A model generated the notes under the pieces. It was not told the origin of the DNA. It saw nothing but the letters and a program-made list of their open reading frames with translations, and did not search any database. From Ignavibacteriota bacterium (GTDB taxonomy: Bacteria > Bacteroidota > Ignavibacteria > UBA10030 > UBA6906), in NCBI GenBank assembly GCA_963837815.1, contig CAWIOS010000012.1, positions 783,005 through 847,004 of the forward strand: 64,000 bases of DNA, in the 5' to 3' direction. This document shows, in pieces, positions 28,063-63,593 of the stretch (its first letter is position 1; each line of letters opens with the position of its first letter). The position numbers and the translations under genes were made by a program.

Positions 28063-28108
28063 CTATGCTGTCCTTGAACGTGTTTTCGAAGGTATGGATG
28101 CGGAGAGG

Positions 28109-28801: not shown

Positions 28802-28835
28802 GGGGTATCCGGGAACAGAGTGGAGTGACGATCCG

Positions 28836-29858: not shown

Positions 29859-29907
29859 GTAGTATCAACGTTTGAAAGGCAATGCGCGTTCCAGTCCCGG
29901 CGTACCC

Positions 29908-31401: not shown

Positions 31402-31411
31402 CAGGGTTCCT

Positions 31412-32689: not shown

Positions 32690-33282
32690 GCGCCGGCCCC
32701 TTTTTCGCCGGCCGATGCGGACGGAGGATCAGGCGGCGGGACCGGTGGGACGAGCAGCCTGAATCCGATCAGGTGATTGACTGTCGTTTTCCCCATCGTG
32801 AACGGGGATTCTTCCACAAATGTGAATCCGAGCGCCTTATACCACGCAATCGTCGGGGCGTTTTCGGACATGACGCCGAGCCAGACCCTGTCGTAGCCGG
32901 CCCCCCGTGCGGCGCGGAAAGCCTCCTCCATGAGCTTCGATCCAAGCCCGTGCCCCTGGCACGCGGGCAGGACATAGATCGAGGCGACGTGACAGCGCCC
33001 GGAATCCCGATCGGACGACATGATCATGTACCCGCCCGGATTCCCGTCCAGGAACGCGATGTACCCGCTCGTGGAGGGTTTCCGGAGGTTCCGGACGAGC
33101 GCGTCCGTCGAATAATGCTCGTCGTGGTAGGCCCGGAGGTCCGCCTCGGGGATGAACATTCCGTACGCGGCCTTCCATGTCTCCCAGCCGATTCGCCGGA
33201 CGTCGGGTATGTCACCTTCGGTCCAGGGCCTGATCAACGCAGTGTGAACACCGGGCCCGCTCTCACTCATCGCATCCGTCAA
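32686..33282 (-). CDS. GNAT family N-acetyltransferase
   Basis: 198 aa; acetyl-CoA binding motif (VLPACQGHGLGSKLMEEAFRAARGAGYDRVWLGV). Overlaps ampG start by 4 nt and the amidase 3' end by 20 nt, so translationally coupled. Confidence 0.75.
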   Translation of the reverse strand: MTDAMSESGPGVHTALIRPWTEGDIPDVRRIGWETWKAAYGMFIPEADLRAYHDEHYSTDALVRNLRKPSTSGYIAFLDGNPGGYMIMSSDRDSGRCHVASIYVLPACQGHGLGSKLMEEAFRAARGAGYDRVWLGVMSENAPTIAWYKALGFTFVEESPFTMGKTTVNHLIGFRLLVPPVPPPDPPSASAGEKGAGA

Positions 33283-35056: not shown

Positions 35057-35140
35057 TCGGTTTGTATTCCCTCAGAATGTGGGAGATATCATTCATGACC
35101 CGGAAAGACGCTTTCCGTGCAGATTTCCTCAACGACGGGT

Positions 35141-36490: not shown

Positions 36491-36491
36491 G

Positions 36492-39431: not shown

Positions 39432-39434
39432 GCG

Positions 39435-49305: not shown

Positions 49306-49400
49306 CGCCTGCGGCGGGATGCAAAAAGCGCTCCCCGCCTGTGGCGGGATGCAAAAAGCGCTCCCCGCCTGTGGCGGGATGCAAAAAGCGCACATTGATT
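49306..49400. repeat. Tandem array of three 30-bp direct repeats (ggcgggatgcaaaaagcgctccccgcctgt), each an imperfect palindrome/hairpin; third copy degenerate
   Basis: Visible at 49313-49342, 49343-49372, 49373-49395 (plus a partial leader copy from 49306). Each unit has arms ggcggga / tccccgcc around an A5-containing loop. Lies 5 nt downstream of the epimerase stop and about 40 nt upstream of the nagX start on the minus strand. Confidence 0.8.
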
Positions 49401-50539
49401 CATAGTTTGGTGATGCCGAGGCCGGGGCCGTCGGTCAGCGTGACCTTCCCGTCGACGATCGCGGCTCCTTTGAAGAGGTCGTTGCTTATCAGGAGAGCGC
49501 CGTCCAGGTCCGCATAATCCGCCAGCGGTGAAAGCTGCGCCGCGGCGGAGATCGCGCACGAGGTCTCCGTCATGCACCCGATCATCACCTTCATGCCGAG
49601 CGCCCGGGCGGCCGCGATCATCTTGTACGCTTCGTGCATGCCGGTGGATTTCATCAGCTTGATGTTGATGCCGTCGAATACGCCGATCGCGTTCTTGATG
49701 TCCGACATCCGGACGACGCTCTCGTCCCCGATGAGGGGGAGCGGGCTGCGCGACCGGAGCCAGGCGATATCATCCGGTTGCTCTTTCGGCATCGGCTGCT
49801 CCACGAACTCCACCCCCTTCGTCGCGAGCCATTCGATCTCCTTCAGGGCGGCTTCCCTGTCCTTCCATCCCTGGTTCACGTCCACGCGGATCGGCTTGTC
49901 CGTCACCTCCCGTATCGTCTCGATCATCTCCTTGTCATTCGCGAGTCCCATCTTGACTTTGAGGACCCTGTATATTTCCGCCTCCTTCACCTTCTGCCTC
50001 ACCACATCCGGCTTGTCGATCCCGATCGTGAACGTCGTGACGGGGGCTTTCGACGGGTCGAGCCCCCAGATCCTGTACCACGGGCATCCCATCTTCTTCC
50101 CTATCCAGTCGTGGAGCGCGATGTCAACGGCGGCTTTCGCGGCATTGTTCCCGGGCGCGATCGCGTCAACATCGCGGAGTATGTCTTCGAGACGGAACGG
50201 GTCGGCGTATTTTGCCATGTCCACCTTCGAAAGAAACGCTGTCGCGCTCGCGTGGCTCTCGCCGAGATAGGGGGGCATCGAGGCCTCACCGTACCCGACG
50301 ATCCCGTCCTGTTCGACCTCCACCATCATGACGGGGGTCGTGCTGCGCGAATACGTGGCCACCGTGAAGACGTGTTTCAGTTCGAGCGTGTAGGGATAGA
50401 ATCTGAGTTTCATGGGATTCCCCGTTGTTGATCCCGTGACGGCGCTTCGACCGAGCGACAAGAGAGCGCTCCGGCCGAGCGCGAGCGACGCCCCTGCGAG
50501 GGCCGACCGTTTGAGAAATGTCCGTCTGTCAGTGTTCAT
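49400..50539 (-). CDS. L-Ala-D/L-Glu dipeptide epimerase (enolase superfamily, MLE subgroup; YkfB/YcjG-like) with Tat-type signal
   Basis: ORF 49400..50578; start MNTDRRTFLKRSALAGASLALG (twin-Arg) at 50539. Enolase-superfamily KxK motif (LKVKMG), metal ligands (DVNQGW…E…D). Paired with NlpC/P60 endopeptidase gene upstream. Confidence 0.75.
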   Translation of the reverse strand: MNTDRRTFLKRSALAGASLALGRSALLSLGRSAVTGSTTGNPMKLRFYPYTLELKHVFTVATYSRSTTPVMMVEVEQDGIVGYGEASMPPYLGESHASATAFLSKVDMAKYADPFRLEDILRDVDAIAPGNNAAKAAVDIALHDWIGKKMGCPWYRIWGLDPSKAPVTTFTIGIDKPDVVRQKVKEAEIYRVLKVKMGLANDKEMIETIREVTDKPIRVDVNQGWKDREAALKEIEWLATKGVEFVEQPMPKEQPDDIAWLRSRSPLPLIGDESVVRMSDIKNAIGVFDGINIKLMKSTGMHEAYKMIAAARALGMKVMIGCMTETSCAISAAAQLSPLADYADLDGALLISNDLFKGAAIVDGKVTLTDGPGLGITKL

Positions 50540-51770
50540 AGCCGCCGTAGTACGGGAGTGATGCAAGCCGGCGGACACCCGAGGATTCCCGGGCGCCGAT
50601 GATCCTGCGTGCCCTTATGAAATTCACCGAACGGAAATCGCTGTAGTCTGAATCGGCCGGGTCCAGGCTGTTAAAATGGACGTCGGCGGACGAATGGATG
50701 AAACGCTTTCCCCCGAGCGAGATGGCAACGTGCGTTATCCTCTCCGGCTTCTCACCCGAGGCGCGAGCCCCGAAAAACATGAGGTCGCCCGGTTCCAGGT
50801 TCATGTTCCCCCCGGGAACGTCCACGGGGTCCCCCACGGCAGCCTGCTGGTCGGCGTCCCGCGGAAGAAGGACACCGTTGAGAGCATAGACCGTCTTCGT
50901 GAATCCCGAGCAGTCCATCCCCTTCGCGGAGGTCCCCCCCCAGAGGTAGGGGACGCCGAAGAACCGTTTCGCCGTTGCGACGATCCGTTCCGGTGTATCC
51001 TTCGCCCGGGCAAGCCATGTCTCACACGGTTCAGACTGGTCCCTCCCGATGAAACCCGCGCGGCCGTCCGGATATTCCACCTCGTACAACGAGCCGGAGA
51101 TCCCCCGGAAGCCAAGGAGCGAACCCGCCACGACATCGCTCACGGGCTGAGAGGATTTCTCATTCGTGGAGCGGACCCAGGCGAATTCGGCGGTGACGAT
51201 GAGTTTCGGCATCCGCGCCCAGGCGTCGTACCGGTCGTTCGCCATACAGACAATCCTGTCATCGGTCCATCCCAGGTATTCATCCGGCGTCTGGACGAGA
51301 TACCATCCGTCGTTCTTTTTCAGAATCTTCACAGGCGTGCCAAGCAGAGCCTGGGATGCCAGTTCGGCCGGGTGCATCGGTTTGCTCCGGAGGTTGGCAA
51401 CGCTCACGTTGATGACGCCGAGTGTCTTTTCCCCCACAGACGGTCCGGGGAGGGAAATGATGCTATCGATGATTGCATAGCCCCCTTTCCCGCGGAGGAA
51501 CCCGAGGAGCCGTTCGTGCATCTGCGCGTCCTGTATTTCGCCCGTCAGTGTCAGCGTCATGCCGGACACCGTTCCATGCACGTCAAACACCGCCGTGCGG
51601 TGGTCGGGGGCGAGGTTCTCCCGTGCTTCATTCAGGAGTGCGTTTGCCATCGGGGAGTCCGTTGTCCGTGTGCACGCCGCGACGAGAGACACACATGCCG
51701 CAGCCAGGAGGATCCGCCATTGGGTCCGCGGATGCGGAATGATGACGACCGATGTGCGCGCGCGGGTCAC
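50529..51770 (-). CDS. NlpC/P60-family gamma-D-glutamyl-(L)-diamino-acid endopeptidase with SH3b domains (YkfC-like)
   Basis: 413 aa; lipoprotein-like N-terminus (…LLAAACVSLVAAC); NlpC/P60 catalytic motif FGVPYLWGGTSAKGMDCSGF plus His (ITHVAISLG). Confidence 0.8.
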   Translation of the reverse strand: MTRARTSVVIIPHPRTQWRILLAAACVSLVAACTRTTDSPMANALLNEARENLAPDHRTAVFDVHGTVSGMTLTLTGEIQDAQMHERLLGFLRGKGGYAIIDSIISLPGPSVGEKTLGVINVSVANLRSKPMHPAELASQALLGTPVKILKKNDGWYLVQTPDEYLGWTDDRIVCMANDRYDAWARMPKLIVTAEFAWVRSTNEKSSQPVSDVVAGSLLGFRGISGSLYEVEYPDGRAGFIGRDQSEPCETWLARAKDTPERIVATAKRFFGVPYLWGGTSAKGMDCSGFTKTVYALNGVLLPRDADQQAAVGDPVDVPGGNMNLEPGDLMFFGARASGEKPERITHVAISLGGKRFIHSSADVHFNSLDPADSDYSDFRSVNFIRARRIIGARESSGVRRLASLPYYGGYEH

Positions 51771-54149
51771 TTATTTGATGAGGAGCATTTTTTTCGTCAT
51801 TGTAAACGCGGCGGCGGTCATTCGCACGATGTACATGCCGCTCGCCCGGTTTGACCCGTTCCACGGGACGGCGTACCTCCCGGGGGCCTGCACACCGTCG
51901 ACAAGCCGCTCCACCTCCTGGCCGAGCATGTCGTACACGATTATCGTCACCCTGCCCGACACAGGGAGCTGATAGCCGATCGTTGTCGAGGGGTTGAACG
52001 GGTTCGGATAATTCTGATCCAGCCCGAACGTCGACGGGACTCCGGGCGGGGTTTCCACGCCCGTGACCTGCACGGTGCGGAACTTGTACACCGGAGACCA
52101 TGCGCTCGTCCCGATAGAGTTGGTCGCCCGGACCCTCCAGAAATAGATCGTGAAATACTCGAGCGGGGGAGCACCCAGCGCCGTGTCGGCGACGCCGGCC
52201 GAGTCCATGACGGGAGAGGCGAAATCCGCGCTCTTTCCGATCTGCAGACGGTACGATACGGGGCCGGTCGAGAGGGCCGGACTCCACCGGAGCGACAGGA
52301 ACACAGGGAGGTCGGGCTGCATGTTCGCCGGATACAAGAGAGACGGCGTCGCCGGGAAACCTGTCCGGAAATTCGACGCCGCGGACCAGGAGCTTGTCCC
52401 CCCGCCACTTGAAGCCCGCACACGCCAGTAATACAATGCCTGCCCCTGGAACCCCTTTACGAGCCGGAACGTGTCCGTAAGGGCCGACTCATTCCAGACC
52501 AGGCCCGACGCAAACGCCGGGTCCGTCCCGACCTGAAGCTGGTAGCCCGATGCAAGGAGCGATGAACGCCATGTGACGCTCAGGCTTTCGGCCACGTCGG
52601 ACGTGCCGCTCAGGGGCGCAGAGAGAAGCGGAGCGGGAGGAGCTGAGAGTATTATGATGTTGCTCGTGTCGCTCTCGACATAGTTCCGGCTGAGGGCTGT
52701 GACGAGATAGTACCAGGGTCCACCCGGGGACGGGGGAGCCGGAGGGACGAAATATCTATTTCCTTCGACGGAGAGTATGTTCAGCGGGTTCGCAAGCTCG
52801 GACGCCGCCGGGCGGTGGTCAAAACGATACACGACATACCGGTACGCGGTATCGCCGTTCGGCGAGACAATGGGAAGGTCCCACTGGATCGCGGCGGGAG
52901 CCACGCCGGGAAGCGCCGCGTAACGGATGCCGCGTGGCATATAGGGAGGGGTCATATCCTTCCACGGCATCGGCGCGATGAGCGCCGGGTACGCGTACAC
53001 GCTGTTCCGGAGTGTGTCGGCGATCCCGCCCAGGTTCCCCGAAGTAATATCGTTCGTCGTGAACTGAATGTTCCCCTGCGTGTTCACGTCGGCCCTTGAG
53101 AACCGGATCTGTTGTGCGATCTGGGAGGCGTCACCGAACGAGCTCGTCCCAATCCTGTACGTCGCAAGCCCCGGGTACGAGTGCCGCCCGTGCGCCGCCA
53201 CCGAGTCGGACCACCAGGGCTCGAGTGTCGCGTAGTCCTGCGGCCCGCCGAACTTCCAGTAGAGCTGCTGGGCCAGGTAGTCGACATACTGGCCGTCGAG
53301 CCAGGCCATAGGGTCGCAGTAGATAACGGAGTAGTTGTCGTTTCCGCTCGTGTTCGGGGGCATACCGTCCTTCCAAATACCCGCAGGGCTCATGCCGAAC
53401 TTCACCCAGGGTTTAATCGCCTTTATGCTGTCGTAAATCGCCTGAAGGAGTATATTGACGTTGTCGCGCCGCCAGTCACCCCTGTCGGAAATTCCGCGCC
53501 AGTTGAGGCCGTAGGAGGAATCGTCCTGGTGCGCGGTGATCCCCTCGGCGTAGAAATAGTCGTCCATATGTATCCCGTCAACGTCGTAGCGGCGGGTCAC
53601 ATCGAGTAGGACGCTGGTGACGTACGCCCTGACATCCGGCAGCCCCGGGTCGAGCATCTCGAGGTTTCCGATCGTGAGTATCCACCCGGGATGCCGGACC
53701 GAGACATGCATGGAGCTAATGGGATATGCCCCGATGGAATTGACCGCCCTGTAGGGATTGAACCACGCGTGCAGCTCCATCCCCCTCTTGTGAGCCTCAT
53801 CGACGGCAAACTGGAGCGGGTCGAACGGGGACTGGGGAGGGGTCCCCTGCGACCCGGTCAGCCAGTATGACCAGGGCTCGATCGAGGACTGATAGAAGGC
53901 GTCGCACTCCGGGCGCACCTGAAATATCACCGCATTGAACCCCTCCGCGCGGAGGCTGTTGAGTATCGATACCAGCGAGTCCTTCTGCCTCTGGACCGGA
54001 CCGCCAAGAACCGGGGGCCAGTCGGTGGCCCCCACAGTCGTGAGCCAGACGCCCCGGAACTCATGCTTCGGCAAGACCTGGGAAGTGCAGGTCAGTACCA
54101 CCGACAGGAGGAGTGCGCCGACGGCCAACGGCAGATGAAGAGGTTTCAT
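51771..54149 (-). CDS. T9SS-secreted GHL10 (glycoside-hydrolase-like family 10 / YngK-type TIM barrel) protein with FN3-like repeats and Por-secretion C-terminal domain
   Basis: ORF 51771..54200; start MKPLHLPLAVGALLLSVVLTCTS at 54149. GHL10 N-terminal motif EFRGVWLTTVGATDWP…NAVIFQVRP…HAWFNPYR; middle FN3-like repeats; C-terminal …DQNYPNPFNPSTTIGYQL…VYDMLGQEVERLVDG…GMYIVRMTAAAFTMTKKMLLIK type-A CTD. Confidence 0.7.
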   Translation of the reverse strand: MKPLHLPLAVGALLLSVVLTCTSQVLPKHEFRGVWLTTVGATDWPPVLGGPVQRQKDSLVSILNSLRAEGFNAVIFQVRPECDAFYQSSIEPWSYWLTGSQGTPPQSPFDPLQFAVDEAHKRGMELHAWFNPYRAVNSIGAYPISSMHVSVRHPGWILTIGNLEMLDPGLPDVRAYVTSVLLDVTRRYDVDGIHMDDYFYAEGITAHQDDSSYGLNWRGISDRGDWRRDNVNILLQAIYDSIKAIKPWVKFGMSPAGIWKDGMPPNTSGNDNYSVIYCDPMAWLDGQYVDYLAQQLYWKFGGPQDYATLEPWWSDSVAAHGRHSYPGLATYRIGTSSFGDASQIAQQIRFSRADVNTQGNIQFTTNDITSGNLGGIADTLRNSVYAYPALIAPMPWKDMTPPYMPRGIRYAALPGVAPAAIQWDLPIVSPNGDTAYRYVVYRFDHRPAASELANPLNILSVEGNRYFVPPAPPSPGGPWYYLVTALSRNYVESDTSNIIILSAPPAPLLSAPLSGTSDVAESLSVTWRSSLLASGYQLQVGTDPAFASGLVWNESALTDTFRLVKGFQGQALYYWRVRASSGGGTSSWSAASNFRTGFPATPSLLYPANMQPDLPVFLSLRWSPALSTGPVSYRLQIGKSADFASPVMDSAGVADTALGAPPLEYFTIYFWRVRATNSIGTSAWSPVYKFRTVQVTGVETPPGVPSTFGLDQNYPNPFNPSTTIGYQLPVSGRVTIIVYDMLGQEVERLVDGVQAPGRYAVPWNGSNRASGMYIVRMTAAAFTMTKKMLLIK

Positions 54150-54223
54150 AGGAAATGATGGTTCCGATTGACGCGCGGCGGATTTCAAGGATCCCGGCAC
54201 ACTGGAATCTACTGAATTTCCCG

Positions 54224-54263
54224 AATAAATGAAAAGGCATCCCGCACATTTGCGCGGGATGCC
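54224..54263 (-). terminator. Putative rho-independent terminator (10-bp GC stem ggcatcccgc/gcgggatgcc, 8-nt loop, followed on minus strand by TTTTCATTTATT)
   Basis: Perfect inverted repeat at 54236-54263; on the transcribed (minus) strand it is followed by a T-rich tract; located 43 nt downstream of the stop of gene 54306..55769. Confidence 0.55.
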
Positions 54264-54305
54264 CTCTCAATCCTCAACCCCCGGTCAGCAAGGGGGGGCG
54301 AATAG

Positions 54306-55769
54306 CTACTTCAACAGCATCATCTTCTTCGTGATCCGGGCGTCGCCCGATGTGAACGTGTAGAGGTACGTCCCTGAGGCAAGGTTCGTGCCGTCAAGTT
54401 TCGCCGTGAACGTCCCGGGATTCATGTTCTGGTTGACGAGAGTCGCCACCACCCTCCCGATAACGTCATAGACCTTGAGCGTCGTCATACCGGCCTTCGC
54501 AACCTTGAACTCGATTTCCGTCGAGGGGTTGAAAGGGTTCGGGTAGTTCTGCTGCAACGCATAGCCTGAGGGAACGTTGTTGTTCACGACGCTGATGCTC
54601 GTGACAGTGCGCGTGTACATACGGAGCGAAGGATTCCCGTGTCCGGTGAGACCGAACACTCCGACGTAGGCCGTGTCGCCGCCCGGGCTGAATGCAATCG
54701 CACGGGGGCGTTCGTTCGCATCATTGGCGATGAAGAATGTCCACTTGATGCTGTCCCTCACCGCGCAGTTGCCGGTGGTGTCGATGGCATACCACGTTCC
54801 GGGGGTGTAATATGTCGTAAGACCGGGCCAGTCGTTCGGCACGTCGTTATACGAACCGCAGCTCGCCCAGAGGTATGCATTCGTTCCGCTCTTCTTCTTG
54901 TTCCAGCCGATCGACTCGCAGTGGAATCCCTTCAGGATCGTGTCAATGCGCGTATAGAACGAGCCGAGAAGCCCGGCCGGCGAACGATAGCGATAGATGG
55001 CACGGTCCGTGTAGCCGGGGAAATAGATGTCATTACCGTCCTTGGAGACTTCGACGGCCCGGCAGTACGAGTTCGGATCGAGCGTATCAACGGCATTCTC
55101 ATTGAACGTCAGGTCCGGGTTGAACACCGCCAGGGGGGCGGCGCCGGAGGCAACCTTTGTCGCATACACGTAGCCATTGGCGTCGACACCGACGGACACC
55201 GTCGATGCGCCCGCGGTGTTTTCGAGACCCTTCGCCATCCCCGCACCGGTCTTGTAGTTGATCCGGTAGAAGATATTGAACATCGATGCGATGATATTGC
55301 CGTCCTGGTCACAGCGGAGTCCGCGACCCGAGTTCGGGCTGCTCGACGGATTCCAGAGCCAGGGACCGCCGGTATACGCCTGCAGAGAAGCGCCGCCGAT
55401 CGTGTCCTGTTTCCCGTTGACCGTCAGGAACTTTATCGGCGAGAATGACACCTGCGTGCCGTCCGGATTGTACACGCGGATCACGCGCACAGCAACCTCT
55501 TGCTGCGTGATGCTGTCCGTGATCGTCTTTCCGTCCCCGATACGCGCGCCGTAGTTCTTGACAAGTATCGTATCCTCGGGATACGCATAATAGCTCAGGA
55601 CCCAGATCTTCCCGTCAGGGTCAACCGCCAACCCGTGTACCCCGTAGTGAATCGTGTCTCCCGCAACCTTACCCGCCGGGGGAAATATCCCCCGATCCTG
55701 CCACTGACCGAAGGCTGTAACAGCGGCGAGTATGGAGAGCAGGATGACTGCTGTAACTGTTTTCTTCAT
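54306..55769 (-). CDS. T9SS-secreted beta-propeller protein of unknown function
   Basis: ORF 54306..55868; start MKKTVTAVILLSILAAVTAFGQ at 55769 (AGGAG RBS). C-terminal …QNYPNPFNPSTEIEFKV…VYDVIGRVVATLVN…GTYLYTFTSGDARITKKMMLLK type-A CTD. Confidence 0.65.
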   Translation of the reverse strand: MKKTVTAVILLSILAAVTAFGQWQDRGIFPPAGKVAGDTIHYGVHGLAVDPDGKIWVLSYYAYPEDTILVKNYGARIGDGKTITDSITQQEVAVRVIRVYNPDGTQVSFSPIKFLTVNGKQDTIGGASLQAYTGGPWLWNPSSSPNSGRGLRCDQDGNIIASMFNIFYRINYKTGAGMAKGLENTAGASTVSVGVDANGYVYATKVASGAAPLAVFNPDLTFNENAVDTLDPNSYCRAVEVSKDGNDIYFPGYTDRAIYRYRSPAGLLGSFYTRIDTILKGFHCESIGWNKKKSGTNAYLWASCGSYNDVPNDWPGLTTYYTPGTWYAIDTTGNCAVRDSIKWTFFIANDANERPRAIAFSPGGDTAYVGVFGLTGHGNPSLRMYTRTVTSISVVNNNVPSGYALQQNYPNPFNPSTEIEFKVAKAGMTTLKVYDVIGRVVATLVNQNMNPGTFTAKLDGTNLASGTYLYTFTSGDARITKKMMLLK

Positions 55770-55854: not shown

Positions 55855-57081
55855 CTACCGCAAACCATAATACGGAGCGCTCAGTTTCAGCGTGTTTATC
55901 ACGAGCATCTCGTGAGTGGTCGTCGTCCCGAGGAGCGAGACGTACAGGTTCGGTCCCTTCCCCCAGGCAAACGCAGCCGGCATCGGGGTGAGCGTGCCCG
56001 GATAGAGCGGCTGGCTCGAGCCCCCCGGATGGACAACGACAACTCCCTCGGGTGCATCCGTCCCGATGTACAGGTCGCCGTCGGAGGAGAACGTAATGCA
56101 CTGGACGCCCGGCCCGTTCGGTGTGTACAATCCAGAAAAATCGAAGTATTTCGAGGCGGGGCCGAGACTGTCGGATGAGACGATGGGAAATTGCCAGACA
56201 CTTTCAACCGAGTCGGTTTTCGCGCCAACATAGAGCGACCCGTTGTAGACACGGAACGAGCGGCATGTTGCGACGAACGGGAATGCCGTGACAATGCCGG
56301 CGGGCGTCACGCTGTATATGGCATTGTTTGCGCCCCCGGCCCATATGGTGCCGTTCGCATCGAAATCGAAGTCCACGATCTTGACTCCCCCCGGAAAGAG
56401 AACCCAGATCGCCGCTGCTCCCCCGCCGGCAGGGATCTTGTAAATGACCTGGAGGTTCCGCGCGGCATACAGGACGCCCCCGGGACCCATCTTCAATCCG
56501 GTCCACTTGGTAACGCCCGGAGTCGTCGAGTACGCCGCCGACTGCCTCGTGCCGTCGGGCGCGATCTTCCAGGTGCCGAGCCCGGTCCCGGATGCAGTCG
56601 ACACGAGCGAGACGTAGACGTTGCCGGCGGTGTCGCAGGCAATGCCATTGGGGTCTTCCCCGCTCTTCTGCACGCTGAAACCGGCCGCCGCGGACTTGAG
56701 GCTGTACACGACATAGTTGCTGAAGGCCTCGGCGCCCTGGACGGCCACAGTCACGAGCAGGGAGTCCTGCACGACCAGGGGAGCCCGTACGGTAAGTGTC
56801 GTCGCGGAGGCGGTGAGTATGGCAGCGGGGGTCGTGCCGAAATAGACGAGATCGTTGGCAACCACCGGCGAGAAATTCGTCCCCTTTATCGTAATTACCG
56901 TCACGCCCGAAAAGGCGGTATTGGGCGGCAGGGCGGGATTGTCCGCAGTGAGTGACGTGATCGTGGGAGTGGGAAGGCTCTGCCAGTTGGGATCAAAGAG
57001 GCTCGGTTCGGGCTTCTTCGCACAACCGGAAAACGCGCCCACCAGCGCCGCCAGGCCAAGGATGAATACGGAATGTTTCAT
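55855..57081 (-). CDS. Lipoprotein with IPT/TIG-like domain and NHL/beta-propeller-like repeats (unknown function)
   Basis: 408 aa; lipobox FSGC; IPT-like segment (SGVTVITIKGTNFSPVVANDLVYFG); repeated blade-like motifs (GNVYVS, GVLYAA, GTIWAG, GSLYVG, GDLYIG). Confidence 0.55.
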   Translation of the reverse strand: MKHSVFILGLAALVGAFSGCAKKPEPSLFDPNWQSLPTPTITSLTADNPALPPNTAFSGVTVITIKGTNFSPVVANDLVYFGTTPAAILTASATTLTVRAPLVVQDSLLVTVAVQGAEAFSNYVVYSLKSAAAGFSVQKSGEDPNGIACDTAGNVYVSLVSTASGTGLGTWKIAPDGTRQSAAYSTTPGVTKWTGLKMGPGGVLYAARNLQVIYKIPAGGGAAAIWVLFPGGVKIVDFDFDANGTIWAGGANNAIYSVTPAGIVTAFPFVATCRSFRVYNGSLYVGAKTDSVESVWQFPIVSSDSLGPASKYFDFSGLYTPNGPGVQCITFSSDGDLYIGTDAPEGVVVVHPGGSSQPLYPGTLTPMPAAFAWGKGPNLYVSLLGTTTTHEMLVINTLKLSAPYYGLR

Positions 57082-57122: not shown

Positions 57123-58139
57123 CTACATTGCAAACTGTAAGGAGAGCCGGTGGACGCTGCCGAACACCCCGAAAGGCGTGTATGCGTAGTCCAGCCCGAG
57201 CCCGAGCATCCCCATGATATCCAACTTGCGGAGACCGATGCCGTACGTCCATTTTGTCTCATCCTGGGGAGAGACGTACCCCACGCGCAGCGCGATCATG
57301 TCCTGGAACCTGTACTCCACACCGAAGCGGACCATTTCGGCATAGTCCCGCGGATGCTCGGCGTCGAGCGTCACGAGGAGCGCATGAACCGATCCGTCAA
57401 CCCGCGTCAGGTCGAGCACGTTCATCGATATCCCGATCTTGAACGTGAGCGGGAGCTGGAAGGGTTCTTTCTCGTATTCCACCTCGCGCGAGAAATTCTG
57501 AACCACCATCCCGAAATTCAGGCTCTTGAAGCCGGTCTTGTAGATGAGGCCGAAATCAAACGCCAGCACGTCCACGGTGTTGCTCGACTCCGTGCGCGCC
57601 CCGCTGTTCGGGTCAATTTCCGTGACCGCGAGGCCGAGCGACTGGCGCACGTATTTCGCAGTCCCGCCGATGGAGAACTTGTCATTGATGGCCCGCGCGT
57701 AGCTCAGCCCGAGAGACAGGCCGGAGGGATGAAACGGACCCGTGTCCTGGTATCCCTGTGAGGCGGAAGGATCGACGATGGTCCCCTCAAACGTGCCATA
57801 ATCGACAAAATGGAGGGAAAGCCCGAATACCCCGTAGTCGCCGCCGGAAGGCGCGATGGCGATCGCCCCGCCGTAGTGGTCGATGTCGGCGATGTATTTC
57901 GTGTCGCTCAGCGTGACGCTTACCGGGCTGGAGAGCCGGGACATCGTCGCCGGATTGAAGAACATCGCAGACGCATCCCCTTCCACCGAGGTCAGCGCCT
58001 CGCCGAGCCCCTCGGCCCTGGCTTCCGTCCCGACTTCCAGGAATTTCATGCCGGTCTGTGCGAGCTTTTGCTGTCCGGAGGCCGTCCAGGCGCAGAGAGC
58101 ACACAGAAGGATGAGCAGTCTGAGTTGTGTCGTTCTCAT
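57123..58139 (-). CDS. FadL-superfamily outer-membrane beta-barrel, PorV/PorQ-like (T9SS-associated) candidate
   Basis: ORF 57123..58175; start MRTTQLRLLILLCALCAWTASGQQ at 58139. N-terminal motif GTEARAEGLGEALTSVEGDASAMFFNPATMS resembles the conserved G-ARA-G-GGA…DASA…NPAGL box of FadL/PorV-type barrels. Directly downstream of a T9SS cargo gene. Confidence 0.5.
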   Translation of the reverse strand: MRTTQLRLLILLCALCAWTASGQQKLAQTGMKFLEVGTEARAEGLGEALTSVEGDASAMFFNPATMSRLSSPVSVTLSDTKYIADIDHYGGAIAIAPSGGDYGVFGLSLHFVDYGTFEGTIVDPSASQGYQDTGPFHPSGLSLGLSYARAINDKFSIGGTAKYVRQSLGLAVTEIDPNSGARTESSNTVDVLAFDFGLIYKTGFKSLNFGMVVQNFSREVEYEKEPFQLPLTFKIGISMNVLDLTRVDGSVHALLVTLDAEHPRDYAEMVRFGVEYRFQDMIALRVGYVSPQDETKWTYGIGLRKLDIMGMLGLGLDYAYTPFGVFGSVHRLSLQFAM

Positions 58140-58158
58140 TGAATACCCCGGTTCAGTT

Positions 58159-60264
58159 TTAGCGAATGACGGCAAGTTTCTTTATCGCCCGCTCGCCGGT
58201 CTTCATGTTCTCAAACACCACGATATAGACGCCGCTCACAACGACCTGCCCTGACGAGGTGTTGGAATTCCAGTACTCGTCGCCGCTCCCGTTTGTGTGG
58301 AGGATCTCCTTGATCAGCTCTCCCACCTCGGTGTAGATCCGGATCCTGCACTGCCCCGGAATGTTGAAAAACGCGATCCTGTCACCAACCGTCGCCCCGA
58401 ACCGGAGGGTCGCAATGTCGGAAGCGATGCTGAAGGGATTCGGAACAATGCGGATGCTTGAAAGCGGAGTCTCCACGGACGCCCTGAGGAGATTCACCTT
58501 GTCATACGTCTGCGCCATAAGCCTGTTGCTCGTGAGGAGGGCTCCGGCGGGGGTCGAACCGGTGGGGTCGCTTGTGACAGCGGAGCCAACGCTCAACAGG
58601 TAGTAATAGTAATCGAACCCCCTGGAGAGTGCCGTGTCTTTGTAGCTCCTTTCCGCGGCACCCACGGTTGCGACGAGTGAATATGTGCCGTCAGAGCGGT
58701 CACGCGCACGGTAGATCTGGAATCCTTTCAGCAGCGGATCTCCGGGGTAGACGTCCCAGCTCAGGTTCACCCCGTCCCCGGCGGACTGGGCGGTGAACGT
58801 CTTCGGGGGAAGGGGGGGCTGCGGAATATTATATCCGGAGTTGTAGTTCGCGAGCGCCCTCCGGAATGTCTGGAAAAGCGAGTCTCTCCCGGTAAGGACG
58901 GAGTCATTTTTGGCCTTCGTTCCAGCGGCAACCGTCGCGGGCACACCTGAAGACACAGCCGCCTTGAACGCGTGCCCGACAGAGAGGCATGCCGTGCGGC
59001 TGAGACCGGAGGCACCCTCGGCGCAGACGATATGGATGCTCTGCCCCGGTCCGAGCGTGTACGGGCCGTACCCGTCGGCGTTTGTGAATCCGCCGGTCGT
59101 ACCGAGCGACGGGTCACCGGTGGGCACGTCGAAGGCCCCGTCAGGCTGCACTTTGTCCGCGTGACGCGGCGACGCGTGGCCCGATGACATCACGGCGTAC
59201 TCTGCCGCCATATACGGGACATTGAACTGGCTGTTATTCGACGTCGGAGGATTCAGCTTTTCGTCGGAGCCGAAATATGTCGTCGTCGAAGGCTGTGACG
59301 GATCGTCCGTGGTGTCGGTCGCCGATTTGTCGGCGTGAAGCGTCTCGGTCCCGATGAACTGGGCGGCCGCCAGGCGTCCGACCGTATCGGCGGGATCATC
59401 TGCGGGAAGGGCGGGGGTGAACATCGGCGCCCCGATATTGCTGTACGCGGTAAATGTGGGAAACAATCCCTGCCAGGTGTAGCGGCAGCGGAATTGCTGT
59501 CCCGCGGGGTCGGGCTTCACGCCGTCTCCCCGCGCATCATTCATCGAGTTAATCCCCCACGACGTCGGATTGCCGATTTCCTGGCTCCCGTCGTACGTGC
59601 AGGCATACCGTGACTGTATGAATATGCGGAGGCCGTTGAGCGTCTGGCCTGCAAGCGGAGCGGCGGTCGTACCGTCGATCTGACCGGTATTCGTGAACGT
59701 GTATTCGTAAATAAAGTAGTTGTCGTTGTACGTCTGGCACCAGGCGAGGATTTTCCGCGTCATTGTGACGCCGATGGCGGTATTGTCCGTGTTGATTATC
59801 ATCCGGTCGCATTTCAATGTCGGATCGGTTGTCGAGCTCGAAAGCGGCGCTCCTCCTACCGAAACGACACCGTCTGCATACACGGTGGGGGGATCAAACC
59901 GGTTTATCGTCTTGAACGTGACAGGGAAGAACTCGCCGAGACCGTTGACGCGCGGTCCGACGTGGACCACCTTCTGCAGCCACGTCGTTCCGGTCTGGTC
60001 CGTCCAGTTCGTCACGCCGATCCAGAGGCCCGACGCCGCTTCCATGTCCTGGTATTTGTAGTACGCGGGCCACTGGAGGCCGTCCTGCTGCACGGAGACC
60101 CGTCCTTCCTCGATCTCATGACCCGTAGAGGCAAACCAGTGGTTCAGCGAACCGACCGCCATCCACCGTATCTCAACCTGCGCCCGCGCGGGCACGGCCA
60201 ATGCAAGAAGGGCCGCAAGGGAGAAGGCGACCCCGGAATGTGCATACTGACGATGACGCATCAT
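58159..60264 (-). CDS. T9SS-secreted protein of unknown function (cell-surface, adjacent to TonB-dependent receptor)
   Basis: ORF 58159..60480; start MMRHRQYAHSGVAFSLAALLALAVPARAQ at 60264 (GAGGAAA RBS). C-terminal about 95 aa (…IVPNPFSIASDIATLRF…GVYIVVFENMKTGERAIKKLAVIR) resembles a variant T9SS CTD. Confidence 0.6.
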   Translation of the reverse strand: MMRHRQYAHSGVAFSLAALLALAVPARAQVEIRWMAVGSLNHWFASTGHEIEEGRVSVQQDGLQWPAYYKYQDMEAASGLWIGVTNWTDQTGTTWLQKVVHVGPRVNGLGEFFPVTFKTINRFDPPTVYADGVVSVGGAPLSSSTTDPTLKCDRMIINTDNTAIGVTMTRKILAWCQTYNDNYFIYEYTFTNTGQIDGTTAAPLAGQTLNGLRIFIQSRYACTYDGSQEIGNPTSWGINSMNDARGDGVKPDPAGQQFRCRYTWQGLFPTFTAYSNIGAPMFTPALPADDPADTVGRLAAAQFIGTETLHADKSATDTTDDPSQPSTTTYFGSDEKLNPPTSNNSQFNVPYMAAEYAVMSSGHASPRHADKVQPDGAFDVPTGDPSLGTTGGFTNADGYGPYTLGPGQSIHIVCAEGASGLSRTACLSVGHAFKAAVSSGVPATVAAGTKAKNDSVLTGRDSLFQTFRRALANYNSGYNIPQPPLPPKTFTAQSAGDGVNLSWDVYPGDPLLKGFQIYRARDRSDGTYSLVATVGAAERSYKDTALSRGFDYYYYLLSVGSAVTSDPTGSTPAGALLTSNRLMAQTYDKVNLLRASVETPLSSIRIVPNPFSIASDIATLRFGATVGDRIAFFNIPGQCRIRIYTEVGELIKEILHTNGSGDEYWNSNTSSGQVVVSGVYIVVFENMKTGERAIKKLAVIR

Positions 60265-60295
60265 GAGTTTCCTCGTTAAGGGTTGAAACAGGCTC

Positions 60296-63200
60296 TCATA
60301 TGTCATAGGACAATCGCAGGCCGAAGAAATACTGTGCCGGGTTGAGGAACGTGAACGTGGTCTGGTTCGGCATGACGATATATGCCTTGTTGTCCAGAAC
60401 ATACTGTTTGTGCGAGGGGCTCGGGTCGTTCGGATCATACGGCTCATACGGCACCGTGCGGTAATCGCCCGGGCGGTCATTCCCCGGTATGTTGACGTAC
60501 CCGAGCTGCGTATTGTATGATGCCGGGAACGCCGGGAGATGGAGCGACTTTATGTACGCGTCGAAGTCGGTCCCCAGAACGAACCCGTCCTGCGACATGT
60601 ATTTCAGGTTGAGGACATTGTACATGTCCATATAGAGCTCGATGTTCAGCTTGGCGATCTTGATATTCTTGCTTATCCGAAGGTCGAGATCGTAATAATC
60701 GCGCCACTGGAGATTGTTCTGGACGCCGGGGATCGAAGAACCGCCGCCCCCCGCCCAGGTGAAGTAAAACCCGGACTGCCAGTTGCCGATGAGATCAAGA
60801 CGCCAGTCCCCGAGAAGGCTCACCGGACCGAGCGCGGGCCCGAGGCTCGGGGGGGTAAAGAAATAAATATTCGCACGCGCATAGGGCTGGGGAATCGGCT
60901 GGTTTATCACGGGGTTTGCCTGCTCAAATGCGGCCTGCTCGCTCGCGTTCTGATAATATGTCGAATATCCAAAGTGTCCGTTTGTGCGGACGTCGTACGT
61001 ATAGTTGATGAACCCCTGGATCCAGCTCCCCTGCTTTTTGTCCACGGTCACTTCAAAACCGCGTATATCGCGATACAGGTTCGGGGTCGTCGTGCTGTAG
61101 TTGATTGTCCCGTCGTTGGAGACGTAGGTCACCGGGTACGGCTCGTCCGTCACGTCCTTGTAATACGCGGCGACCCGGACCAGCAGCATGTCGAAGAGAT
61201 TCTGTTCGTACCCGAGCTCGTACGCAATTGTCTTCGGCGCGGCCATATTCGGGTCAGACATGCGAAGAAGCGCGTGCGTGAAGAGGTCGAAGCGGGCCAG
61301 GAACAGGTTGTCCGGCGTCGGCAGGGACCGCATGTGGCCGTAGTTGAAATAGAGTTTCGAGTCCTCACTGATCGGGAATGCGATACCCAGGCGGGGGCTG
61401 ATATCGACCTGTCTCTTGGTGCGGACCTGTGCGATGAGAGTGTCAATCCCCCCCGAATAGGCCCCGGAGAACGCGGAATTGTACGGGTCAGTGTAGTTGT
61501 ACCAGGAGCCGCTCGGGTCAAGGTAGTCGAGGCGCACGCCGAGGTTCGCGATCATACCCTCGAACTCGAGCTTGTCCTGCAGGTAGGCTGCACCGCGTTT
61601 CGGGAATGTGTGAAACTTCGACCAGTAGCGCCCACCCGCCGGAAGGAATGCATCAACGGACGCGTAGTCGATGTTGTCGTCGGTCAACACCCACTCGGCG
61701 CCCGCCTTGAACTGATTGAAGTGGTCGATCTGGCTTGTGATGTCGAATTTCGCCGTGTACGTCGTCACCTTGCTTGAATCGCGCGAGTCGCTCATCCCGA
61801 CGCCCATGCGGAGTCCGGTGATGCCCGTGCTCGGCGCCGGCTCGTATCCGAAAGGAGCCATGTCGACGAGATACCCGTTCCCGAACGACATGATCGGTGT
61901 AGTGTTGCGGAGCGCGGCAGGGTTCGTGCTGTACTTCGACTGGAACACGAAGAAGCTCGCGTCGTAAAACGTCTCCCCGCCCAGCACATGCGTCACCTTC
62001 GCGCCGCCGGATTTGTAGTCGATCGTCGTCGGCGCCCAGTAATCGGTCGAAAAAATCCGGGAGTCGATATAGCTCAGCCCGTTGGACATGGAGCTTGCGA
62101 TTTCGTCCGGATTTCCCGTAAACACACCGTTGTTCGACGCATCGCTCGTCGTCGTCGCCGCATTGCCGGTTCCGGCGTTGTTGTTGTTTGTCCCCGTCGT
62201 GCGCCCTGCCAGTCCTTCCACGAGAAGCTTGAGCGTGGGTGTGATGTCCGACGTGACACGGGCCTGGCCGTTGTAGTTCCGGTACGCGTTGTCCGACAGG
62301 GGGATGATATATGCGCTCTGTGATTGTTTATACGCGGCAAAGAACCGGAGATTTCCGAGCGCTTCCCCGCCGGGAATGGGGCCGCCGATCCCGCCGTCAA
62401 AGTCGTAATCGGGGATGTTGATTTCCGCCTGCTTCCGGTACTCCCAGAGGAAAACCTGCTGGGCCGCAGTCGGCGTGAGGTGATTGGCCGGGTTGGGGTC
62501 TTTCATCGTCGCCTGCGAGACGGCATTCCAGCCCTGGAACTGGGCGTACTGTTGCTGCATGGCCGCATTCCAGGCGCCGTTCTGCGTCCCCGTCCAGCAG
62601 ACTGACGGATCGATGTAGGGACGGATCCAGTACGAGTTCGGGTCGTAGATCGACGGGCCGAAGTGCTTCGGCCGGGGGTTGGCATAGCGGCCGTTGAAGG
62701 AGAAGCTGTAATCGGATTTGCCGCCTTCCTTCGTTATCACGTTAACGAGGCCGGAGCGGAGGTCGCCATATTCAGCGTTGAACCCGCCGGTCTGCACCTG
62801 GACGTCCTGGATGGAGCTGAGCGCGATCCCCGTGTACGGGAGGTTCGTCCGCTCATCGCGCAGCGTGAGTCCGTCCACCATAAAGGCGGTCTGATCGGGG
62901 GTGCTTCCGCGGATGACGGGACCGGTCGGCGTCGCCTGAACACCGGCCTGCAGGCCGATCGCGTTTGTCACATTCGCAACGGGAAGCCGGTCAACCTCTG
63001 CGATCTGCATGTTCGCCGTGCTCGCGGAGATATCCCTCTGAACGACGGGTCTCTGTGCGGTGATGACAATTTCCTGCCCCTGGACCGTCTCTTCGCTCAG
63101 CTTGAAGTTCAGTGTCGTCGTCTGGTCAATTTCGACGCGCACATCGATCTCCGTCACGGTCGTATAGCCGACGAGCGACGCCCTGACACGGTATGACCCC

Positions 63201-63406
63201 GGAGGGATGTTCACGATAGCGTAGAAGCCGTCGACATTCGTCGCCGCACCCGTGGTCAACCCCTCAACCACGACGTTCGCAGAGAGCAGCTTCTCGCCGC
63301 TCCTGGCGTCGGTGACGATCCCGGCAATTTTGCCTGTGGTTCCAGCGAAGAGGGAGGTGGAAATCAAGAGGGGTAAAAGGACGGGCAAGCACCTGATTGC
63401 CTTCAT
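60296..63406 (-). CDS. TonB-dependent outer-membrane receptor with N-terminal carboxypeptidase-regulatory-like (CarbopepD_reg) domain, SusC-like
   Basis: ORF 60296..63448; start MKAIRCLPVLLPLLISTSLFAGTTG at 63406. CarbopepD_reg-like KIAGIVTDARSGEKLLSANVVVEG; plug region (…GLTLRDERTNLPY…FNAEYGDLRSGLVNV); C-terminal barrel ending in LRLSYDI (aromatic C-terminal strand). Confidence 0.75.
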   Translation of the reverse strand: MKAIRCLPVLLPLLISTSLFAGTTGKIAGIVTDARSGEKLLSANVVVEGLTTGAATNVDGFYAIVNIPPGSYRVRASLVGYTTVTEIDVRVEIDQTTTLNFKLSEETVQGQEIVITAQRPVVQRDISASTANMQIAEVDRLPVANVTNAIGLQAGVQATPTGPVIRGSTPDQTAFMVDGLTLRDERTNLPYTGIALSSIQDVQVQTGGFNAEYGDLRSGLVNVITKEGGKSDYSFSFNGRYANPRPKHFGPSIYDPNSYWIRPYIDPSVCWTGTQNGAWNAAMQQQYAQFQGWNAVSQATMKDPNPANHLTPTAAQQVFLWEYRKQAEINIPDYDFDGGIGGPIPGGEALGNLRFFAAYKQSQSAYIIPLSDNAYRNYNGQARVTSDITPTLKLLVEGLAGRTTGTNNNNAGTGNAATTTSDASNNGVFTGNPDEIASSMSNGLSYIDSRIFSTDYWAPTTIDYKSGGAKVTHVLGGETFYDASFFVFQSKYSTNPAALRNTTPIMSFGNGYLVDMAPFGYEPAPSTGITGLRMGVGMSDSRDSSKVTTYTAKFDITSQIDHFNQFKAGAEWVLTDDNIDYASVDAFLPAGGRYWSKFHTFPKRGAAYLQDKLEFEGMIANLGVRLDYLDPSGSWYNYTDPYNSAFSGAYSGGIDTLIAQVRTKRQVDISPRLGIAFPISEDSKLYFNYGHMRSLPTPDNLFLARFDLFTHALLRMSDPNMAAPKTIAYELGYEQNLFDMLLVRVAAYYKDVTDEPYPVTYVSNDGTINYSTTTPNLYRDIRGFEVTVDKKQGSWIQGFINYTYDVRTNGHFGYSTYYQNASEQAAFEQANPVINQPIPQPYARANIYFFTPPSLGPALGPVSLLGDWRLDLIGNWQSGFYFTWAGGGGSSIPGVQNNLQWRDYYDLDLRISKNIKIAKLNIELYMDMYNVLNLKYMSQDGFVLGTDFDAYIKSLHLPAFPASYNTQLGYVNIPGNDRPGDYRTVPYEPYDPNDPSPSHKQYVLDNKAYIVMPNQTTFTFLNPAQYFFGLRLSYDI

Positions 63407-63593
63407 GTCAAGCTCCTGGATGATGCGTACGGGATAGCAAAAACTCATAGACAGAGGAAAGAAGAGATAAGAAGGATAGCAATAGGCGCGGCCGTCAAAG
63501 AGAGGTGAGCCATTGCGGCCAAACCAGTGTAGGGGAATGTATGAAACAGCGATTGGAGTGTCAAGTGGTGCAACTAAATATCCTTCTCCCCAA

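Follow-up and report, generated by a model that had tools for sequence, protein, structure and literature searches.

What stands beside a TonB-dependent receptor at the cell surface when the gene that follows it does not encode a SusD-family lipoprotein? The question is raised by a locus from an Ignavibacteriota bacterium (GenBank assembly GCA_963837815.1, contig CAWIOS010000012.1, forward-strand positions 783,005 to 847,004), a stretch of 64,000 nucleotides referred to below as the window, in whose own numbering all coordinates are given. A preliminary description of this DNA had placed a three-gene unit at 57123-63406, consisting of a SusC-like receptor, a 701-aa secreted protein (here X701) with a type IX secretion system (T9SS) C-terminal domain (CTD), and a small PorV-like barrel. 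All three open reading frames (ORFs) are present there in series on the minus strand, but the unit has five genes rather than three and reaches 54306.

We propose that these five genes form an operon for a cell-surface capture-and-import machine built around the TonB-dependent transporter, and we give this statement, taken with its full mechanism, about an even chance of being correct. Because the operon sits in a large block of cell-wall-degrading genes, what it captures and imports would most likely be peptidoglycan fragments from dead bacteria.

Organization of the five-gene unit

All five genes lie on the minus strand. They encode, in order, the receptor (1036 aa, 63406..60296; CarboxypepD_reg-type N-domain and Plug in Pfam), X701 (60264..58159; Sec signal, predicted beta-supersandwich, divergent CTD), a PorV/PorQ-family outer-membrane barrel (338 aa, 58139..57123; NF033709), a lipoprotein with a TIG domain and a beta-propeller (408 aa, 57081..55855; lipobox, Pfam TIG and Reg_prop), and a secreted beta-propeller protein with a canonical T9SS type-A CTD (487 aa, 55769..54306; Por_Secre_tail, TIGR04183). 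The region's best sigma-70-like promoter match (63536..63564, minus strand; TTGACA-17-TACATT, 10/12) occupies the 187-bp gap upstream of the receptor gene; it is a weak, consensus-only match, and promoters of the FCB group may differ. A strong terminator-like hairpin (54230..54269, minus strand; 18-bp stem with 10 G-C pairs and a T-rich tail) lies past the propeller gene's stop (54306) and ahead of the following GHL10 gene, and ends the unit. Median intergenic gaps down the five genes are 29, 24, 39 and 77 bp (63-82 loci). These short gaps, the hairpin after the fifth gene and the promoter-like site before the first lead us to predict that the five genes are one operon.

The receptor and X701 each have more than 1000 database homologues, with identities of 50-90%, and the gene order is repeated in ~85 independent loci; we therefore regard these as real genes and not chance ORFs. 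An Rfam scan of the window gave no match. No SusD-family domain was detected by Pfam in the five operon proteins, nor was one found among the families recurrent in the flanks of 21 loci. The earlier statement that no SusD follows the receptor is thus borne out as far as the SusD family is concerned, although a lipoprotein does follow, two genes past X701.

The receptor shares the SusC domain order but lies outside the SusC family

The receptor begins with a signal peptide and a CarboxypepD_reg-type N-terminal extension (NTE; CarbopepD_reg_2, E 1.1e-18, plus CarboxypepD_reg, with Plug after it in Pfam). A TonB-box-like motif, QEIVITA (family consensus EEVVVVA), separates the NTE from the plug, which is followed by a large barrel, and the AlphaFold2 (AF2) model (34 sequences; pLDDT 76.7) has the corresponding N-terminal sandwich, plug and large barrel. 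The SusC/RagA model TIGR04056 scores 65.4 bits against a cutoff of 368.25, in an alignment that covers residues 26-433 only, and the fold of the model is no nearer to SusC than to BtuB or Cir; BtuB1 and BtuB3 of B. theta are among its top structural matches. When the receptor profile was compared with solved structures in the PDB, only the NTE (including that of a SusC homologue, 9hfj_A) and the plug matched, and a single-sequence search of the PDB returned no match. The SusC domain order is shared, yet the SusC/RagA model is failed, and so we class the receptor outside the SusC family, as a generic TonB-dependent transporter whose N-terminal domain is of the SusC type. To call it SusC-like, as was done at first, is correct for its NTE and domain order and incorrect for family membership and structural closeness.

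X701 is a beta-rich protein with a divergent T9SS tail

X701 has a Sec-type signal with an AxA|Q cleavage site, an invariant Gln after the cleavage point and no lipobox Cys. Searched against Pfam whole and in pieces, it matches no family; its sole NCBIfam match pairs the last ~68 residues with the PorZ C-terminal domain (E 1.6e-6, or 5e-8 when the search is confined to the tail). The AF2 model (36 sequences; pLDDT 77.8, pTM 0.77) is mainly beta and divides into a beta-supersandwich (residues ~75-420), helical hairpins (423-475), an Fn3 domain (489-562) and a CTD sandwich (605-701) with strands spanning 605-699. In fold, X701 matches the non-catalytic N-domains of GH116, GH15, GH94 and GH65 and also the galactose mutarotase-like fold; a profile search of the PDB matched only the Fn3 domain. 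X701 shows neither the lipoprotein signal nor the all-helical tetratricopeptide repeat (TPR) fold of SusD/RagB proteins, and the suggestion that it is not SusD-like thus agrees with its predicted structure.

The tail of X701 is homologous to the type-A CTDs of neighboring proteins, with which it aligns over the whole domain (hhalign 95.5%, E 1.4e-8), the PNPF and SGxY motifs included, and the picture of a family-less protein with a T9SS CTD is upheld. Within the same operons the hhalign score of the X701 CTD against the canonical CTDs is 47, as compared with 235 for two canonical CTDs together. The tail bears a nine-residue insertion, scores 15.8 bits on TIGR04183 (below the cutoff of 23), has no match to PF18962 and gives E 0.03 against the type-B CTD (CHU_C). 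Foldseek matches the tandem of Fn3 domain and CTD to the PorZ structure 5m11. On these comparisons the X701 CTD is best classed as a divergent type-A-like subtype, closest to the CTD of PorZ.

A profile search with X701 against 1.84 billion representatives yielded 785 clusters at E <= 1e-30. Of the best matches to the X core, some two thirds are ~720-aa proteins with an X701-type tail, among them members of the paralogous X2 family described below, and in the remainder the core is fused to BNR/Sortilin-type propellers or right-handed beta-helices. All seven fusions scanned (7/7) carry a canonical Por_Secre_tail and not the PorZ-like tail. Because these relatives also bear T9SS tails, the X core can be regarded as a module of T9SS-exported surface proteins. 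In the same seven fusions (P0373, P0383, P0385, P0433, P0439, P0450 and P0463) the X core comprises supersandwich, helices and Fn3 domain, and is accompanied by N-terminal BNR/Sortilin-type propellers or by C-terminal right-handed beta-helix/PMP-repeat regions.

X701 might itself be a surface enzyme of a new glycan-cleaving family, whose products the receptor imports. Within the orthologous group 22% of supersandwich positions are invariant, many of them Asp, His, Arg or Glu, and the right-handed beta-helix domains fused to some X relatives are in keeping with such a role. Over 120 divergent X representatives, however, the 30 positions conserved in at least 93% are mostly Gly, Pro or Trp, and no catalytic-type residue set or acid-base pair pattern is conserved; nor does X701 have a sequence match to any enzyme family. 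Since the conserved positions are mostly of this kind, a binding or scaffold role fits better than a shared catalytic site, and we consider an enzymatic X701 very improbable.

The barrel belongs to the PorV/PorQ family

The product of the third gene scores 196.9 bits on NF033709, the PorV/PorQ family model (cutoff 90), and matches the F. johnsoniae PorV structure 6h3i_F with E 1.3e-14. The N-terminal motif 'GTEARAEGLGEA...GDASAMFFNPA', on which the original assignment as PorV-like was based, is present, and the assignment is sound at the level of the family. The barrel stays below the equivalog cutoffs for PorV (NF033710, 94 bits against 250), PorQ (NF033711, 100.5 against 220) and PorV2 (53.5 against 325), models trained largely on Bacteroidota, for which proteins of distant phyla are expected to fall below cutoff. 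It likewise does not reach the cutoffs of TIGR03519 for PorP/SprF (27.4 against 90.55), of Toluene_X PF03349 for FadL (20.3 against 29.7) or of the BamG model (20.5 bits against 250). In Pfam its E values are 1.1e-8 for PorV, 3e-6 for PorP_SprF and 2e-4 for FadL/Toluene_X. Among the PorV, PorQ, PorP/SprF and FadL models with which comparison had been suggested, it is therefore the joint PorV/PorQ family whose cutoff is passed.

The barrel gene lies 3' of the X701 gene at a median distance of 24 bp (82 loci), and its copy number follows that of X and the receptor, not that of the lipoprotein. By analogy with carrier-cargo pairs of known function, we propose that X701 has in this barrel its cognate carrier and anchor. 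Indirect support for a dedicated carrier comes from the 1:1:1 ratio of receptor, X and barrel, which is kept even when two such triads share one lipoprotein, and from the PorZ-like character of the CTD.

Distant PorV/PorQ-family paralogues, with 27-29% identity to the window barrel and 219-244 bits on NF033709, are encoded just upstream of the cassette in loci L019 (2676-6849), L081 (2564-6652) and L078 (3223-4257). In L019 the neighbors of the paralogue are a T9SS-tailed FG-GAP protein and a ROK/NagC-like regulator, and in L081 the neighbor is a GHL10 gene. The occurrence of PorV-family paralogues beside other CTD proteins would be in line with a general tendency of these lineages to pair carriers with cognate cargo.

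Conservation of the triad and the place of the lipoprotein

A scan for X701 relatives in a collection with one genome per species identified at least 545 loci, and 85 loci were examined by tblastn with the window proteins. On contigs of sufficient length, nearly every locus from Ignavibacteriota, Kryptoniota, KSB1, Calditrichota and Rhodothermales has the genes in the order receptor, X, PorV-like barrel, TIG lipoprotein and T9SS propeller, in many cases with GHL10 next. The organism itself belongs to the FCB group but is no canonical member of Bacteroidota, and its closest relatives are Ignavibacteriota-like metagenome-assembled genomes (MAGs). Identity to the window proteins is ~50% for receptor, X and barrel, and ~35-45% for lipoprotein and propeller.

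In several KSB1, Calditrichota and Kryptoniota genomes another triad, paralogous to the first, is encoded in tandem with it (receptor ~41%, X2 ~36%, barrel ~45-52% identical). The X2 proteins, with 62-80% identity among KSB1, Calditrichota and Fidelibacterota, where their triad is widespread, make up a large family for which the NCBI name is just 'fibronectin'; X1 and X2 each have more than 1000 database members. Triads of PorV-like barrel, receptor 2 and X2, in tandem or alone, occur in L002/L014 (14751-22050), L022 (6704-14182), L024 (13798-21440), L089 (5884-12142) and L091 (1835-12139). One lipoprotein gene is common to two receptor, X and barrel triads in six loci (L022, L039, L047, L082, L024 and L029), and the X2 triad of L089 has no adjacent lipoprotein; for this reason we take the 1:1:1 triad to be the core of the system and the lipoprotein to be an accessory. 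The X2 triad of L089 adjoins lptFG and the gene for a 2052-aa SprA, and another gene, GH63/trehalase-like, adjoins one X2 triad.

The lipoprotein, found in 69 loci, combines a lipobox (...SGC), a post-Cys tail of the form xxxxPSL[FY]DPN, an IPT/TIG domain (Pfam TIG, 2.7e-10) and propeller signals (Reg_prop). Its propeller is homologous to that of the fifth gene (hhalign 96.5%), whose product has a Por_Secre_tail (1.4e-11; TIGR04183, 41 bits) and is encoded downstream in ~60 loci.

This lipoprotein could be a rival candidate for the SusD- or BtuG-type partner of the receptor, which would count against X701 in that role. It would then be the lid of the receptor, as BtuG is for BtuB or SusD for SusC, the barrel would anchor its N-terminal tail as BamG does that of BamH or pack against the receptor, and X701 would be ordinary T9SS cargo, with its CTD cleaved and the protein linked to lipopolysaccharide or released. 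The lipobox Cys and the tail behind it are conserved in the lipoprotein orthologues, and the lipoprotein gene comes directly after the barrel gene (median 39 bp). Precedents exist in BtuG, a propeller lipoprotein lid (PMC10404256), and in FadL-like BamG, which binds the lipidated tail of BamH (PMC12611786), and the rank of BtuB1 and BtuB3 among the structural matches of the receptor points the same way. Against it, the six loci with two triads per lipoprotein, and L089 with none, indicate that the barrel goes with X and the receptor; conservation of the lipoprotein is lower than that of the three triad proteins; and the X CTD is a distinct subtype, unlike the other CTDs of the operon. We judge this explanation unlikely, and retain X701 as the proposed partner of both barrel and receptor.

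Genomic neighborhoods point to peptidoglycan

We determined the families encoded around the cassette in a census that covered 21 diverse loci, with 101 flanking ORFs in all. GHL10 (19) and Por_Secre_tail (17) lead the count, fn3/Ig domains come after them, and the next enzyme families are NlpC/P60 (4), NamZ (2) and MR_MLE (2). No classical glycoside hydrolase family, chitinase families GH18, GH19 and GH20 included, is recurrent among the 101 flanking ORFs. The possibility that the triad is a general replacement for SusCD, combined with many types of enzyme, was considered and set aside, as there is one enzyme theme only (GHL10, amidase, NamZ, NagB). Since the census and the X2 contexts show essentially this single theme, the triad is treated here as a specialized system.

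In the window the operon opens a single co-directional array on the minus strand, from 63406 to ~26965 (~36 kb). The first gene after the operon encodes a GHL10 enzyme with fn3/Ig domains and a T9SS type-A CTD (54200..51771, minus strand; Pfam GHL10 1.4e-64, Por_Secre_tail). It is followed by an NlpC/P60 and SH3 protein of the peptidoglycan endopeptidase type, recognized by its domain matches (50529..51770, minus strand), and by an enolase-superfamily racemase/epimerase (49400..50578, minus strand), which best matches DgcA (N-acetyl-D-Glu racemase) and L-Ala-D/L-Glu epimerase, below the equivalog cutoffs. A class-A beta-lactamase-fold protein and a PD40 protein come next, then an Amidase_3 protein (N-acetylmuramoyl-L-alanine amidase) whose domain matches include Big_5 and a T9SS type-A CTD (40379..42913, minus strand). 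Further peptidoglycan-processing genes outside the operon (26965..40373, minus strand) encode, in order, a NagK-like BadF kinase, a GH3 (NagZ-like) and PBP4B-like protein, SpoIID, Amidase_3 with AMIN, GNAT, an AmpG-family MFS permease (171.7 bits, below the subfamily cutoff of 350), DUF4922 and an Asp/Glu racemase; a GH43-like protein also belongs to this group. NamZ (match 4e-84), DUF3160 and a D-lactate-dehydrogenase-type Fe-S flavoprotein are encoded further along (window 15007-21613). Besides X701, three other proteins in the window have a CTD, of the canonical type; together with the SprA gene by the X2 triad of L089 in a relative, they are indirect signs that the organism has the T9SS on which export of X701 would depend.

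Much of this arrangement recurs elsewhere. The NlpC/P60 and epimerase-like genes are co-linear with the cassette in L006, L008, L020, L021, L025, L046, L048, L056, L063 and L065, and a T9SS-tailed Amidase_3 gene adjoins the receptor gene in L004/L005/L043, L010, L011, L017, L063, L066 and L068-L070. Directly against the cassette are found a T9SS-tailed Amidase_3 in Rhodothermales and Ignavibacteriales, NamZ in KSB1, and DUF4922 with a BadF kinase, an AmpG-like protein and NlpC/P60 in MAGs labeled 'Bacteroidetes'. NagB adjoins it in Fidelibacterota, as does a ROK/NagC-like regulator in Kryptoniota (L019), and a Y_Y_Y hybrid sensor kinase lies upstream in Melioribacteraceae (L001, from strain 4301-Me, GCA_041538185.1).

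Judged at the domain level, the array would be a super-locus for peptidoglycan degradation and salvage, in which enzymes predicted to be specific for N-acetylmuramic acid (MurNAc) and for the peptide stem are co-located. The GHL10 enzyme, the most consistently linked of these, is a candidate surface cleaver of peptidoglycan glycan strands; in C. difficile Cwp19 it is the GHL10 domain that acts as a lytic transglycosylase on peptidoglycan (PMC6016235). As the T9SS-tailed enzymes must act outside the outer membrane, their substrate would be exogenous peptidoglycan rather than the cell's own.

The same machine could serve another substrate, such as chitin, chito-oligosaccharides, exopolysaccharide or teichoic-type glycans. 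NagB, NagK-like and ROK/NagC-like genes are general markers of N-acetylglucosamine (GlcNAc) use, the specificity of GHL10 has been established for very few members, and the GH63/trehalase-like neighbor of one X2 triad could likewise be taken to indicate a different glycan. We hold this to be quite unlikely, because NamZ, T9SS-tailed Amidase_3, NlpC/P60 and the epimerase-like enzyme, which are specific for MurNAc or the peptide stem, recur by the cassette in different phyla, and chitinases GH18, GH19 and GH20 and the classical glycoside hydrolases are not among the families recurrent in the 101 flanking ORFs.

Nor need the cassette be nutritional: envelope maintenance, adhesion, turnover or sensing of the cell's own shed wall, or T9SS-related organization of the outer membrane might be its function. 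Its very high conservation and its usual presence as one orthologous copy in each genome agree with this, as do the housekeeping PBP1, SpoIID and AMIN-amidase of the same array and the lptFG and sprA genes beside one X2 triad. TonB-dependent receptors are importers, however, and the T9SS tails of the linked amidase and GHL10 enzyme imply action outside the outer membrane and not on the periplasmic wall of the cell itself; the Y_Y_Y hybrid sensor kinase (L001) or ROK repressor (L019) upstream is of the kind seen in substrate-induced utilization loci. A non-nutritional function accordingly appears highly improbable to us, and uptake of exogenous peptidoglycan remains the proposed function.

Proposed mechanism and points against it

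X701 would be exported through Sec and then through the T9SS, with the co-encoded barrel acting first as its carrier at the translocon and afterwards as its membrane anchor, as PorQ does for PorZ. In this scheme the divergent PorZ-like CTD would stay uncleaved, bound to the extracellular loops of the barrel, and the carbohydrate-binding-type supersandwich would thereby be held beside the receptor, in the role of SusD or of other surface glycan-binding proteins. The anchoring of X701 is suggested because of the precedents of PorQ-PorZ, PorV-PorU and the PorP/SprF carriers: PorQ keeps hold of the PorZ CTD and PorV of PorU (PMC10202324), type-B cargo is retained on PorP/SprF carriers (PMC10994853), and a review has proposed that cognate PorV-like barrels shield CTDs from cleavage (PMC10202324, PMC10994853).

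Accessory binding would be the part of the TIG-propeller lipoprotein and of the T9SS-delivered propeller, the latter, with its canonical CTD, presumably handled by the general PorV route. At the surface, the T9SS-secreted GHL10 and Amidase_3 enzymes would cut exogenous peptidoglycan, and the receptor would import the fragments. Trimming by NamZ, the NagZ-like GH3, amidase and NlpC/P60 would follow in the periplasm, and catabolism would be completed by the AmpG-like permease and the NagK-like kinase, Ala-Glu epimerase-like and D-lactate-dehydrogenase-like enzymes.

In addition to the features of the lipoprotein set out above, several points weigh against this scheme. The related loci are all from MAGs. 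Most matches of the peptidoglycan enzymes are at the domain level, below NCBIfam equivalog cutoffs; PBP1, SpoIID and AMIN-amidase are housekeeping wall enzymes, so that some of the array may be devoted to the wall of the cell itself. The peptidoglycan activity of GHL10 rests on one characterized enzyme, and at least one other member is reported to be active on starch (PMC9967864). Conservation of the X701 CTD was also considered as a sign of CTD retention and rejected as non-discriminating: it amounts to 0.707 against 0.684 for the body, and the canonical CTD of the neighboring propeller is conserved as well (0.655 against 0.436 for its body).

Other features of the window

Two genes of the array encode unusual domain combinations. 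The GH3 gene (36492-39431, minus strand) specifies a 979-aa fusion of a NagZ-like beta-N-acetylhexosaminidase with a serine beta-lactamase/PBP4B-like domain, which would unite glycosidase and D-Ala-D-Ala peptidase-type activity in one chain. A 584-aa protein (46342-48096, minus strand) has a class-A beta-lactamase-fold N-domain (108 bits, cutoff 200) and a family-less C-terminal extension of ~280 aa, and may be a peptidoglycan peptidase, not a resistance enzyme. Two further ORFs inside the array, of 812 aa (43968-46406, minus strand) and 382 aa (48115-49263, minus strand), have no Pfam match; the same holds for the longer opposite-strand ORFs 43713-46358 and 46903-48708, which are probably shadows. 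Between the epimerase-like gene and the 382-aa ORF lies a 30-bp tandem repeat (49306-49391; 2.9 copies, 98% identity), each unit of which, read on the minus strand, forms a G+C hairpin with a T-run behind it; the result is a stack of terminator-like elements.

Upstream of the receptor gene (63594-64000, minus strand, partly past the window end; locus L086, 1-6691) are genes for a sodium:solute symporter and for a protein of 1311 aa in which Hepar_II_III_C and CBM9 are recognized, along with a weak alginate-lyase match; they seem to be a polysaccharide-lyase unit of their own. At 11126-14071 (minus strand) a ThiF/MoeB-Rhodanese protein is encoded in a row with small ORFs and a CysM-like PLP-dependent enzyme, an arrangement reminiscent of a cysteine or thiocarboxylate pathway dependent on a sulfur-carrier protein; it has no relation to the operon.

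Significance and comparison with known systems

In soils and sediments, the cell-wall material of bacteria is a large reservoir of carbon and nitrogen, and how peptidoglycan fragments pass the outer membrane of Gram-negative scavengers is, to our knowledge, largely unknown. The cassette offers a concrete candidate for such an entry route in hundreds of uncultured genomes of Ignavibacteriota, KSB1, Calditrichota, Kryptoniota, Fidelibacterota and Rhodothermales, as well as a functional handle on two large families, X1 and X2, that are unannotated or named only 'fibronectin'. If the proposed mechanism is correct, cell-wall necromass would have an outer-membrane entry route, and PorV-like carriers a third use, as subunits of nutrient importers; the principle that a cognate PorV-like carrier keeps the CTD would extend from secretion housekeeping and gliding adhesins to nutrient transporters, and surface-protein-assisted TonB uptake could be built without a SusD lipoprotein.

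Each part of the system is of a known kind: TonB-dependent transporter, T9SS cargo, PorV-family carrier, surface propellers and peptidoglycan enzymes. Their combination seems not to have been described before: a TonB importer, linked to peptidoglycan, that has as obligate partners a T9SS cargo together with its own barrel of the PorV family. A search of full-text literature, in which subscription journals are thinly covered, found no account of the cassette, of the X family or of a PorV-family barrel in a TonB-receptor operon. That it represents a phylum-spanning class of TonB uptake system, in which SusD is replaced by a barrel-tethered T9SS glycan binder and peptidoglycan of dead or lysed bacteria is harvested, we advance as a tentative proposal that may well prove wrong.

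The nearest parallel in domain order is SusC/SusD (RagA/RagB), where a transporter of ~1000 aa also has a CarboxypepD_reg-type NTE before the TonB box and plug, surface binding-type proteins and surface enzymes are encoded in the same operon, and regulators lie upstream in some genomes. Here, in contrast, there is no SusD (TPR) lipoprotein and the receptor fails the SusC/RagA model; the second gene encodes a T9SS-type beta-supersandwich cargo and the third an integral PorV-family barrel.

The pairing of a PorV/PorQ-family barrel with a CTD protein recalls PorQ-PorZ and PorV-PorU of P. gingivalis, the more so as the X701 CTD best matches that of PorZ. In those pairs the uncleaved CTD tethers the protein to the barrel (PMC10202324), a retention that we infer for X701. 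X701 differs in having no counterpart to the two-beta-propeller body of PorZ, the barrel falls below both equivalog cutoffs, and the pair is located within a TonB-receptor operon and not among T9SS housekeeping genes. SprF-SprB and PorP-PG1035 likewise have the carrier barrel encoded beside its cargo, and PorP/SprF carriers stay as the cell-surface anchor of the cargo (PMC10994853), but the barrel described here is of the PorV/PorQ family and the CTD is type-A-like, not type B. As in cognate carrier-cargo pairs generally, the X and barrel genes are adjacent (82 loci) and remain 1:1 in duplicated triads.

In the BamG-BamH pair of the Bacteroidota BAM complex, a FadL/PorV-like barrel of 14 strands anchors a surface protein by a large barrel (PMC12611786); that pair functions in outer-membrane protein assembly, and the barrel studied here scores far below the BamG cutoff, as given above. 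BtuB-BtuG and XusA-XusB, lipoprotein-capped transporters of small molecules in Bacteroides, resemble the operon in that a transporter is co-encoded with a surface lipoprotein that is, here by prediction, a beta-propeller, whereas the lipoprotein here has a TIG stalk, is the fourth gene and is not always 1:1 with the receptor.

Scavenging by NamZ-type exo-muramidases occurs in Tannerella forsythia, and the known peptidoglycan salvage pathways, AmpG/NagZ recycling among them, begin in the periplasm or through unidentified outer-membrane entry routes. The array shares with peptidoglycan and MurNAc salvage its NamZ, NagZ-like GH3, AmpG-family permease, BadF kinase, amidases and epimerase-like enzyme, all in one array, and differs from it in that a TonB-dependent route of outer-membrane entry and T9SS-exported lytic enzymes are encoded together with them.

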